Below are positions 54,167 to 56,158 of a stretch of DNA of 64,000 nt, one piece after another. A program made the translations under genes and the position numbers. The first letter of the stretch is position 1. Each line of letters begins with the position of its first letter. The stretch is from positions 2,652 to 66,651 of the forward strand of contig JACPBX010000003.1 in the NCBI GenBank assembly GCA_016180085.1, read 5' to 3'. The DNA is from Candidatus Woesearchaeota archaeon. GTDB lineage: Archaea > Nanobdellota > Nanobdellia > Woesearchaeales > UBA10216. Below the pieces are notes generated by a model. The model ran no database searches. It saw only the letters and a program-made list of their open reading frames with translations, and was not told the origin of the DNA.

Positions 54167-56158
54167 ATGGCAAAGAAGCGCGCTCTCATCACCGGAGTCC
54201 TCGGCCAGGACGGCTCCTATCTGGCAGAGTTTCTTCTCAGCAAGGGCTACGAAGTCTTTGGCATGGTCCGGCGCAGCAGCGTTGAGCGCTATGACCGCAT
54301 TGCTCACATCAAGGACAGGCTTACCCTGCTTCAGGGCGACCTGCTTGACCAGTATTCCCTCTCGCAGGCTGTCAAGGATTCTGACCCTGTTGAGGTTTAC
54401 AACCTTGCTGCCCAGTCCTTCGTGCCCACTTCATGGAACCAGCCCGTCCTGACTGGAGAGTTCACTGCCCTTGGCGTTACGAGGATGCTTGAGGCGATAA
54501 GGCAGGTTAATTCCAAGATTAAGTTTTACCAGGCTAGCTCGAGTGAGATGATAGGGGCTTCCAAGCAGTTTCCCCAGAATGAGCAGACGCCTTTCCATCC
54601 CCGCAGCCCTTACGGCGTTGCCAAGGTTTATGCTTACTGGATTACTGTGAACTACAGGGAAAGCTATGGCATGTTCAACTGCAACGGCATTCTGTTCAAC
54701 CATGAGAGTTCAAGGAGGGGCATGGAATTTGTGACAAGGAAGGTTTCTGATGGCGTTGCGAAAATAAAGTTGGGCATGGCTGATGAGCTGAGGCTTGGCA
54801 ACCTGGACGCAAAGAGGGATTGGGGCTTTGCTGGTGATTACTGCGTGGATTTAGACACCAGTATTCTGACTGACGAAGGATTTAAATTTTATGACGAAAT
54901 CAAAGTTGGAGATGCTGTGCTGAATTATAATCCAAAAACAAATAAGTTGGAGAAAGATTTAGTCCTTAAAAAAATAATTTTAAAAAATAGGGGGAGTATG
55001 TATGTTTTTGAAGGGAGAGGTTTTAAACTGCGTTGTTCAGCTAATCACCGGATTTATTATCAAAGGAAGTCGAGGCACAGCAAAGGCGGCTGGAGTGAAT
55101 GGAAAGTTTGTGAAGCTCAAGAATTTTATCGCATGGTTAAAGATTTAAGGTTAAGGACTAAATACGATTTTAGATTGCCTCACACACAGGGTTACAAGAA
55201 CAAGAATTTAAAAGTAAGAGGAGAATGGTTTGAATTAATCGGCTACTTATTAACTGAGGGCTGTTTGTACGACGCTAATAGAACGCTTAGAATTTCTATT
55301 TCGCAGTCTAAGGTTGTAAATAAAATTGTGTATGGGCGCATAAAGAGCTGTTTAAGGAAGCTCAATCTTGCTTTTAAAAGTAGAGAGAGAAACGATGGGG
55401 TGGTAGAATTTAGCTTTAACGTGGAAAGTTCGAAAAAAATAATTGACTATTTTGATGGCTTTGATGTGCATAAGCTTCCAGAGTGGGTTTATAAGGCAGG
55501 CCATCAACAGCTGAATTTGTTGCTTAAGTCAATGATGGATGGCGATGGCTCGTGGGGTGTGATGACTTACGTTTCTAAAAGAAGGAGTTTAGTATCAAGT
55601 TTTCAGACTATCGCGACTATTCTAGGTTATAGAACCATAATTCACCAAAGAAAGTCTGGTATCTGGGAATGTGTTTTAATTGCCTCAAAGAAAAGATATG
55701 CATACGTGACAGCGTTATCAAAAGAGGTGAGTTATGAAAGCATTTGGTGTATAACCACAAGAAATGGTACAATAGTTACAAACAAAGATGGCGGTGTAGC
55801 TGTTAGCGGGAATTGTGAGGCCATGTGGATGATGCTTCAGCAGCCGAAGCCTGATGACTACGTTGTTGGCACCAGCAAGGCCCATTCTGTGAGGGAGCTG
55901 TGTGAGGTCGCATTCTCCCATGTTGGCCTTGACTGGAAAAAGTACGTCAGGGTTGACAAAAAGTTCTTCAGGCCTGCTGAGGTTGACCACTTGATTGCCG
56001 ATGCTTCAAAGGCGAGGAAGGTTCTTGGCTGGAAGCCCAGGGTTAATTTCCGGCAGCTTGTTGGCATGATGGTTGATGCTGACCTTGCCAGGCTGAAGGC
56101 GAATGGCGGCAGGGGCAGCGCGGCTGGCGCAACCAGTGTTGGCGCAGTTAACATTTAA
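54167..56158 (+). CDS. gmd: GDP-mannose 4,6-dehydratase, interrupted by an intein
   Basis: [34 protein letters not shown], and RDWGFAGDY|intein|[10 protein letters not shown]. The track start at 54080 runs into the tRNA and is rejected. Confidence 0.9.
54842..55813 (+). mobile_element. Gmd intein (324 aa) with LAGLIDADG homing endonuclease
   Basis: It starts [10 protein letters not shown] and ends VSGN|C. Block B reads [17 protein letters not shown] blocks are [11 protein letters not shown] and [12 protein letters not shown]. It is strongly AT-rich relative to the exteins. Confidence 0.9.

Follow-up and report, generated by a model that had tools for sequence, protein, structure and literature searches.

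The gene for GDP-mannose 4,6-dehydratase (gmd) in a 64,000-nucleotide (nt) stretch of DNA from a Candidatus Woesearchaeota archaeon (contig JACPBX010000003.1; hereafter the window) is interrupted in frame by an intein of 324 amino acids (aa) that occupies positions 54842-55813 of the forward strand. The element is a real, ordinary intein; judged by its sequence, it is filed as a class 1 intein with a LAGLIDADG homing endonuclease, and its splicing is predicted. Sequence comparison and structural modelling make it very likely that we are dealing with a functional mobile intein in the only gmd gene detected in this genome, a metagenome-assembled genome (MAG) of about 1.0 Mb in 45 contigs with a completeness of 83%.

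Host gene and product of intein removal

The features of the interrupted gene are as follows:

54080-56158, forward strand: gmd open reading frame (ORF), whose frame opens within the tRNA-Leu(CAG) gene
54167-56158, forward strand: gmd coding sequence, with its real start at ATG 54167 and its stop at 56156-56158
54167-54841, forward strand: N-extein, 225 aa, ending in ...RDWGFAGDY; Pfam GDP_Man_Dehyd, TIGR01472 positions 1-232
54842-55813, forward strand: intein, 324 codons, HINT splicing domain (class-1-type) with a nested LAGLIDADG homing endonuclease, assigned from the AlphaFold2 model, Foldseek and homologues
54842-54871, forward strand: splicing block A, with Cys1 (TGC, 54842-54844) as N-terminal nucleophile
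55028-55060, forward strand: splicing block B, LRCSANHRIYY, with Ser66 (B:7), His69 (B:10), Arg70 (B:11) and Ile71 (B:12), assigned by conservation
55235-55261, forward strand: first LAGLIDADG motif, LIGYLLTEG, with catalytic Glu139; Foldseek matches to I-DmoI and to intein endonuclease domains
55520-55549, forward strand: second LAGLIDADG motif, LLKSMMDGDG, with catalytic Asp235
55739-55780, forward strand: splicing block F, SIWC (Trp302, Cys303), with Cys at F:4 replacing the usual Asp and no conserved His
55793-55813, forward strand: splicing block G, GVAVSGN, with Ser322 (G:5), Gly323 (G:6, normally His) and Asn324 (G:7)
55814-56158, forward strand: C-extein, beginning with Cys+1 (TGT, 55814-55816) followed by EAMWMMLQQ; TIGR01472 positions 217-340

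With the intein in place, the 663-residue product matched Pfam GDP_Man_Dehyd in two stretches (412 bits) and scored 417 bits against TIGR01472, the GDP-mannose 4,6-dehydratase equivalog, whose curated cut-off is 415 bits. Deletion of the intein gave a 339-aa protein that scored 437 bits in a single stretch (model positions 1-340 of 342) and was colinear with the Pseudomonas aeruginosa GMD (1rpn) across the junction, so that the host protein lies above the cut-off over its full length in both the unspliced and the spliced form. The open frame spans all 663 codons without a break. No second gmd was detected in this genome (83% complete), which therefore implies selection for splicing.

Splicing blocks and endonuclease domain

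The intein starts with CVDLDTS and ends with GVAVSGN in front of Cys+1, and every residue of class 1 splicing is present except the penultimate His. It has Cys1, Ser at B:7 and His at B:10, the Asn324|Cys+1 junction and a HINT fold, and its removal restores Gmd; Gly323 stands at G:6, where class 1 inteins typically, but not always, have His. The element was filed in class 1 on account of its invariant Cys1 and of a B:12 residue other than Trp. Membership in class 3 was considered and rejected on the same two positions, B:12 being Ile71 in the window copy and Ile, Met or Leu in the family; as regards the class 3 WCT triplet, Cys303 fits at F:4, B:12 fails, and G:5 is Ser322.

An AlphaFold2 model of the intein, built on 16 family members, had a mean pLDDT of 93.8 and a pTM of 0.90. 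Its top Foldseek matches in the PDB were all endonuclease-bearing inteins, with TliVMA (E 3e-14) and PhoVMA (E 3e-13) in the lead, both with a query-normalized TM-score (TMq) of 0.74, followed by PI-SceI and PI-PfuI (down to E 6e-12) and by PI-PkoII. Free LAGLIDADG enzymes such as I-DmoI came after the inteins (E about 4e-7, target-normalized TM-score 0.62-0.66). The model predicts the two acidic-ended helices and the alpha-beta-beta-alpha-beta-beta-alpha fold of a double-motif LAGLIDADG enzyme. At the sequence level, Pfam LAGLIDADG_3 matched weakly over intein residues 228-284, and the block B region aligned with the AceL NrdHF intein (6zgq).

An earlier, sequence-only reading of this DNA had placed a 324-aa intein at 54842-55813 with the junction RDWGFAGDY|C...N|C, and both its coordinates and its junction proved exact, well past anything that chance would give. 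The LAGLIDADG blocks that it described are there as two motifs, and the VSGN|C end, with Cys1 and Cys+1, is read directly from the sequence. It had named two observations that would speak against an intein, namely a junction that does not restore a contiguous Gmd and a lack of blocks A, B, F and G; removal of the intein gave the single-stretch TIGR01472 alignment and the colinearity with 1rpn described above, and the four blocks are all present and conserved in the family alignment.

Inteins at the same site in other Gmd proteins

A word-indexed search returned 48 protein clusters with an insert 40-75% identical to the window intein. In each of the 47 clusters that were parsed, Gmd is split at the same place, with the pattern (D/E)(Y/M)|C...G-N|C(E/K/R/D)xM, and these clusters and the window copy make up the family of 48 inteins used here. 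The metagenome search for same-site Gmd inteins proposed in the sequence-only reading thus returned 47 further protein clusters. Cys1, His at B:10 (His69), the Trp-Cys of block F and the Gly-Asn end are invariant in all 48 members; Ser or Thr stands at B:7 (residue 66) in 48/48 and Arg at B:11 in 45/48. The first endonuclease acidic residue is Glu throughout (48/48), and the second is Asp in 46 members and Asn in two. No conserved His was found in blocks F or G across the 48 same-site inteins. None of the full-length family proteins has a truncated C-extein. The architecture recurs in 10 independent genome records, and the intein-bearing species-representative genomes are labelled Patescibacteria, Omnitrophota, 'uncultured archaeon LFW-46', Saccharibacteria, Campylobacterota and Bacteroidia.

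Several individual copies deserve mention. A MAG deposited as 'uncultured Methanosarcinales archaeon' (L004) carries the same-site intein and appears to be identical to G025:C15, which belongs to the family of the window's organism; if they are the same genome, the Methanosarcinales label is probably a misassignment. In a Bacteroidia MAG (L010, ORF 5326-7317) the same-site intein is followed by Ser+1 (ISGN|SSAIIKIAEY), the C-extein motif is diverged and the first LAGLIDADG acidic residue, Glu, is lost (VIASKGYL), so this may be a decaying intein copy or a drifting host gene. A Campylobacterota MAG (L009, ORF 4216-7407) encodes a 1064-aa Gmd with two inteins, one with Ser1 at NHE|S...VHN|SPVRG and one of the Gly-Asn type at DY|C...VSGN|CTMMW; P0041, P0046 and P0055 are similar double-intein Gmds. 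The weak match P0049 (1064 aa, JGI metagenome, E 7e-4) holds an intein of the same clade, ending in ...VWAGN|C, in another host, a phage portal / Mu F-like protein (PF06074, PF04233).

Gmd is also invaded at a second place. In the window's own family, the gmd of L033 (G018:C10, ORF 1078-3066) has an unrelated intein with a His-Asn end, LFNHE|CVTAET...ALIHN|SPRRG, and an empty DY|VEAMW site. Inteins at this NHE|SPRRG site share the host gene with the window intein but differ from it in site and lineage, in their canonical His-Asn end, in a first residue that is Cys, Ser or Thr, and in Ser+1. The literature names gmd once as an intein host, in Thermosynechococcus, in a comparative-genomics paper that leaves the insertion site unstated (PMC9403480), and the main text of the intein census of Novikova et al. 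(2016) lists only UDP-glucose/GDP-mannose dehydrogenase among such hosts. The view of the sequence-only reading that Gmd is an uncommon host therefore holds for the classical literature but not for metagenomic DPANN and candidate phyla radiation (CPR) genomes, in which the gene is recurrently invaded.

A wider clade of inteins with Gly-Asn ends

An exhaustive HMMER search of 1.84 billion representative proteins (E<=1e-3) matched 3,928 of them, and most of the best 150 cover all 324 residues inside much larger proteins. Projection of the intein ends yielded 126 full-length relatives in other host proteins, with Cys1 in 126/126 and a Gly-Asn end in 119/126; position +1 is occupied by Ser in 57 relatives, by Cys in 42 and by Thr in 27. 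Alignment of the 126 relatives to the family profile gave the following counts:

A:1, Cys: 126/126
B:7, Thr or Ser: 124/126
B:10, His: 126/126
B:11, Arg or Lys: 105/126
F:3, Trp: 97/126
F:4, Cys: 117/126
G:5, Thr or Ser: 83/126
G:6, Gly: 118/126
G:7, Asn: 122/126

The signature of the clade is Cys1, T/S-x-x-His-Arg/Lys, a Trp-Cys block F and a Thr/Ser-Gly-Asn end. Sampled hosts include family B DNA polymerase (PolB), NrdD, DNA methylase, patatin-like phospholipase and further Gmds, and annotated phage hosts include portal proteins, TerL, helicases, DNA polymerase and nucleotidyltransferase, with mycobacteriophages accounting for 105 of the 145 matching phage records. On these alignments, the combination of Gly-Asn with Cys at F:4 delimits a clade that is very large and poorly annotated; this is the new quantitative point of this work. 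The sequence-only reading had described Gly-Asn as a minority end; the Gly is there, but it is not a peculiarity of the window copy, being found in 48/48 same-site inteins and 119/126 relatives. Gly-Asn is a lineage trait with experimental backing in a relative and not a defect. The notion that it marks a defective intein was rejected in view of its invariance in 48 intact copies and of that experimental precedent.

Comparison with characterized inteins

The solved inteins TliVMA and PhoVMA (7qsu, 7qst), PI-SceI (1vde), PI-PfuI (1dq3) and PI-PkoII (2cw7) have the same HINT plus LAGLIDADG architecture as the Gmd intein (Foldseek E 3e-14 to 3e-11, TMq 0.62-0.74), at a sequence identity of 10-13% and in other hosts, namely V-ATPase, ribonucleotide reductase and DNA polymerase. 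As far as is known, these inteins have the canonical penultimate His.

The precedent for the Gly-Asn end is the intein in the recombination directionality factor (RDF) of mycobacteriophage Bethlehem (gp51; phosphoesterase gp52 in AY500153), which aligns end to end with the Gmd intein (about 317 vs 324 aa, E 5e-9) and has Cys1, a TANHR block B, a VWC block F and a TGN|S end with penultimate Gly. It differs in its identity of about 20%, its host and its Ser+1, and its endonuclease region aligns poorly with the LAGLIDADG motifs of the Gmd intein. Kelley et al. (2016) reported that the Bethlehem RDF intein splices completely in its native form, in which the penultimate residue is Gly, that the G316H change slows splicing with accumulation of precursor, and that there is endonuclease-related toxicity (PMC5050341). 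More generally, a residue other than His is found at G:6 in about 5% of functional inteins, and His at F:13 and G:6 is not required in all of them, according to a 2014 review (PMC4031507).

The Ssp DnaE split intein lacks the penultimate His as well, and Tyr(-1) and Arg B:11 were proposed to assist its Asn cyclization (Sun et al. 2005, as described in PMC4031507). The Gmd family likewise keeps Tyr(-1) and Arg B:11 (45/48) without His at G:6; Ssp DnaE is, however, a split mini-intein without endonuclease, and the parallel is one of presumed mechanism. Class 3 inteins, for their part, have a branch-point Cys at F:4 (PMC2807308). In the class 3 MP-Be DnaB intein this Cys lies 21 residues before the terminal Asn (Cys320 and Asn341; PMC2807308), as in the Cys303-Asn324 pair of the Gmd intein, and the likeness extends to a hydroxyl residue at G:5 and to a clade rich in phage hosts. 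On the other hand, class 3 inteins are devoid of an N-terminal nucleophile and have Trp at B:12, whereas the Gmd intein has an invariant Cys1 and Ile, Met or Leu at B:12. The DnaB-like gene gp62 of Bethlehem (AY500153) is only 273 aa long, with no intein inside.

Base composition, distribution and mobility of the intein

The GC content of the intein is 36.9%, as compared with 53.2% in the N-extein and 54.5-55.0% in the C-extein, in agreement with the AT-richness claimed in the sequence-only reading. GC at third codon positions (GC3) drops as well, from 0.66 in the N-extein and 0.64 in the C-extein to 0.36 in the intein, so the compositional step is not an amino-acid effect.

An uninterrupted gmd above the family cut-off was found in 16 of 60 relatives. 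These 16 include three of the 10 other genomes of the same genus that were searched; their gmd is intact and intein-free, and its product shares 84-88% identity with the spliced Gmd of the window. At the +1 position, where the window copy has Cys, every intein-free allele encodes Val or Ile, and the empty site of the congeners reads ...GGN GAY TAY|GTN GAG GCN ATG TGG..., as had been predicted (GGN GAY TAY|GTN GAG GCN). Two or three bases must change to turn a Val codon into one for Cys, and the Cys codon must therefore travel with the intein. Two further loci of the genus hold gmd without intein in broken form: in L032 (G007:C14) it is spread over short frames (positions 1-209 and 290-341), and in L034 (G008:C9) positions 1-140 and 180-339 are present with an in-frame TGA. 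These two loci suggest that gmd is decaying in some congeners.

The same-site intein was found in only one other genome of the window's taxonomic family, with 68% identity. Bacterial copies are as similar to the window intein (range 66-71%; up to 71% in Patescibacteria, 69% in Omnitrophota), and their exteins are only 51-66% identical to those of the window, so that the intein is more alike than the host gene. Judged from these sequences, the GC3 step, the intein-free congeners and an intein identity that exceeds extein identity across phyla point to a recent horizontal acquisition by homing. The pattern, as read from the sequences, is that of a homing element that circulates in a gene pool common to small-genome archaea and bacteria.

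Proposed mechanism and alternative explanations

In the mechanism that we propose, Cys1 would, after translation, convert its bond with Tyr(-1) into a thioester, the N-extein would be passed to Cys+1, cyclization of Asn324 would release the intein, and an S-to-N shift would leave an active Gmd with the sequence ...GDY-C-EAMW.... At F:4, Cys303 would stand in for Asp. With no conserved His in either block F or block G, Asn cyclization is probably helped in another way, and the best candidate helper would be Arg70 (B:11), as proposed for Ssp DnaE. The LAGLIDADG enzyme, in which Glu139 and Asp235 are both intact, would cut the intein-less allele ...GGN GAY TAY|GTN GAG GCN..., and repair would then copy both the intein and the Cys+1 codon into that allele. 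The element would have arrived recently from an AT-rich donor pool common to DPANN archaea, CPR bacteria and Omnitrophota.

Several points weigh against a functional, recently acquired intein in a single gmd. The usual helpers of Asn cyclization, His at G:6 and a block F His, are absent, and Arg70 is proposed as their substitute by analogy with another intein. Curated profiles run on the intein alone stayed below threshold, both Pfam LAGLIDADG_3 (E 0.007, 17 bits vs a cut-off of 22.5) and NCBIfam intein_Nterm (E 0.02, 15.7 bits vs a cut-off of 24.5), and the PDB sequence search matched only the N-terminal half of mini-inteins (6zgq); these searches were thus insufficient, and structure prediction plus Foldseek was needed. 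The same intein family is also AT-rich within other, GC-richer hosts, and AT-richness could in part be intrinsic rather than signal recency alone. In the 20-codon sliding identity with three congeners, no co-conversion tract stood out as a clear dip or peak at the junction. Finally, a second gmd is possible given the 83% completeness of the genome.

An intein late in its homing cycle, still able to splice but with an inactive endonuclease and inherited vertically as a fixed passenger awaiting loss, is a lesser yet appreciable possibility. Such decay occurs in the family, as illustrated by the loss of the first-motif Glu in the Bacteroidia copy (L010), the second catalytic Asp is replaced by Asn in 2 of the 48 members, and the missing co-conversion tract fits this explanation. 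The window copy, however, has both catalytic acidic residues and, in the model, the whole endonuclease fold intact; moreover, the sharp GC3 step (0.36 vs 0.65) argues against long residence, and the presence of the intein is patchy even within one genus. It seems rather doubtful that the clade splices by a non-textbook strategy based on Cys1, Arg or Lys at B:11, the Trp-Cys of block F, Thr or Ser at G:5 and Gly at G:6. In that case the block F Cys would act as a relay or alternative nucleophile in a class 1/class 3 hybrid, perhaps the ancestral stock that gave rise to class 3 inteins in phages, or else would take part in a redox-sensitive disulfide gating maturation of the host enzyme, and either way Arg B:11 would replace His in Asn cyclization.

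A redox switch is improbable as the role of the Gmd intein. In such a switch, Cys1, Cys303 and Cys+1 would form disulfides when oxidized, and Gmd, with the supply of GDP-6-deoxyhexose for the cell surface, would be available only if the cell is reduced. The mycobacterial DnaB intein is reportedly an oxidative stress sensor. Redox-controlled splicing is documented for other inteins, the mycobacterial DnaB one among them, and the Gmd intein family conserves all three cysteines (Cys1, F:4 and +1); on the contrary, the intein-free congeners manage without the element, and Ser and Thr together are commoner than Cys at +1 in the wider clade, of which the cysteine triad is not a feature. We consider it very unlikely that the missing penultimate His prevents splicing and makes gmd effectively a pseudogene, in spite of the broken gmd of some congeners (G007, G008) and of the Ceu ClpP intein, whose penultimate Gly can be reverted to His with a change in splicing (Wang and Liu 1997, as described in PMC4031507 and PMC5050341). 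The frame is open over 663 codons, the catalytic residues are invariant in 48 copies from several phyla, both exteins are conserved with TIGR01472 above its cut-off, and efficient splicing has been shown for a clade member with Gly (PMC5050341). The sharp compositional step and the 45 contigs of the MAG might suggest a chimeric join of AT-rich foreign DNA into the gmd contig during assembly or binning, an explanation that is hardly credible: both joins are codon-exact with canonical splice junctions, including a Cys+1 codon absent from intein-free alleles, and the same arrangement is seen again in 47 independent protein clusters and in 10 independent genome records.

Genomic context

The interrupted gmd lies right after a tRNA-Leu gene and inside a glycan cluster, as described in the sequence-only reading, and its neighbours are sugar-nucleotide and glycosyltransferase genes, in the order tRNA-Leu, gmd::intein, short-chain dehydrogenase/reductase (SDR):

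50741-52042: ugd, glycan cluster
52046-52789: nucleotidyltransferase, glycan cluster
52813-53745: UXS-like SDR, glycan cluster
54016-54107: tRNA-Leu(CAG), 59 nt upstream of the gmd ATG
56185-57105: SDR, the usual gmd partner in relatives, glycan cluster
57087-58355: GT4 glycosyltransferase, glycan cluster
58375-59358: rmlB, glycan cluster
59331-60083: rmlA, glycan cluster
60092-61561: flippase-type protein, glycan cluster

The 59 nt that separate tRNA-Leu(CAG) from the gmd start codon are AT-rich. Upstream of that codon, the extension of the frame (54080-54166, from GTG 54080) overlaps the 3' end of the tRNA gene and is spurious.

The window holds a second intein, of 460 aa, at 17888-19267 (forward strand) in gyrA (17630-21514), with the junctions ...ARIVGE|CFVKDT...GMLSHN|CLGKYHPHGD. 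LAGLIDADG motifs are present in it, F:4 is the canonical Asp, block F contains a His, and the intein ends in His-Asn; it is AT-rich too (0.36-0.42 vs about 0.5). One genome thus houses both a canonical intein (GyrA) and one of the Gly-Asn type (Gmd). A search of the genome with the Gmd intein for sister copies matched only the Gmd intein itself, and the GyrA intein is therefore no close relative.

Significance

LAGLIDADG class 1 inteins, inteins without a penultimate His, a characterized member of the Gly-Asn clade and gmd as an intein host were already known. What is new is the archaeal DPANN copy at the DY|V site and the recognition of Gly-Asn plus Cys F:4 as the mark of a large clade. Gene callers and curated Pfam and NCBIfam profiles miss the Gmd intein, and named homologues are called only 'GDP-mannose 4,6-dehydratase'. 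Across a large clade that extends over phages, DPANN archaea and CPR bacteria, the seemingly anomalous Gly-Asn end is the norm, and the near-universality commonly claimed for the penultimate His is therefore a product of InBase-era data, which are biased towards cultured organisms. The 48 natural variants can be used to study Asn cyclization without His. Nucleotide-sugar enzymes of ultra-small symbiotic prokaryotes are recurrent intein niches, a point of relevance to the idea that replication proteins are where inteins are concentrated. For the organism of the window, the sole detected gmd is predicted to yield active enzyme only after protein splicing, and the GDP-6-deoxyhexose branch of its surface-glycan cluster would therefore depend on a selfish element.

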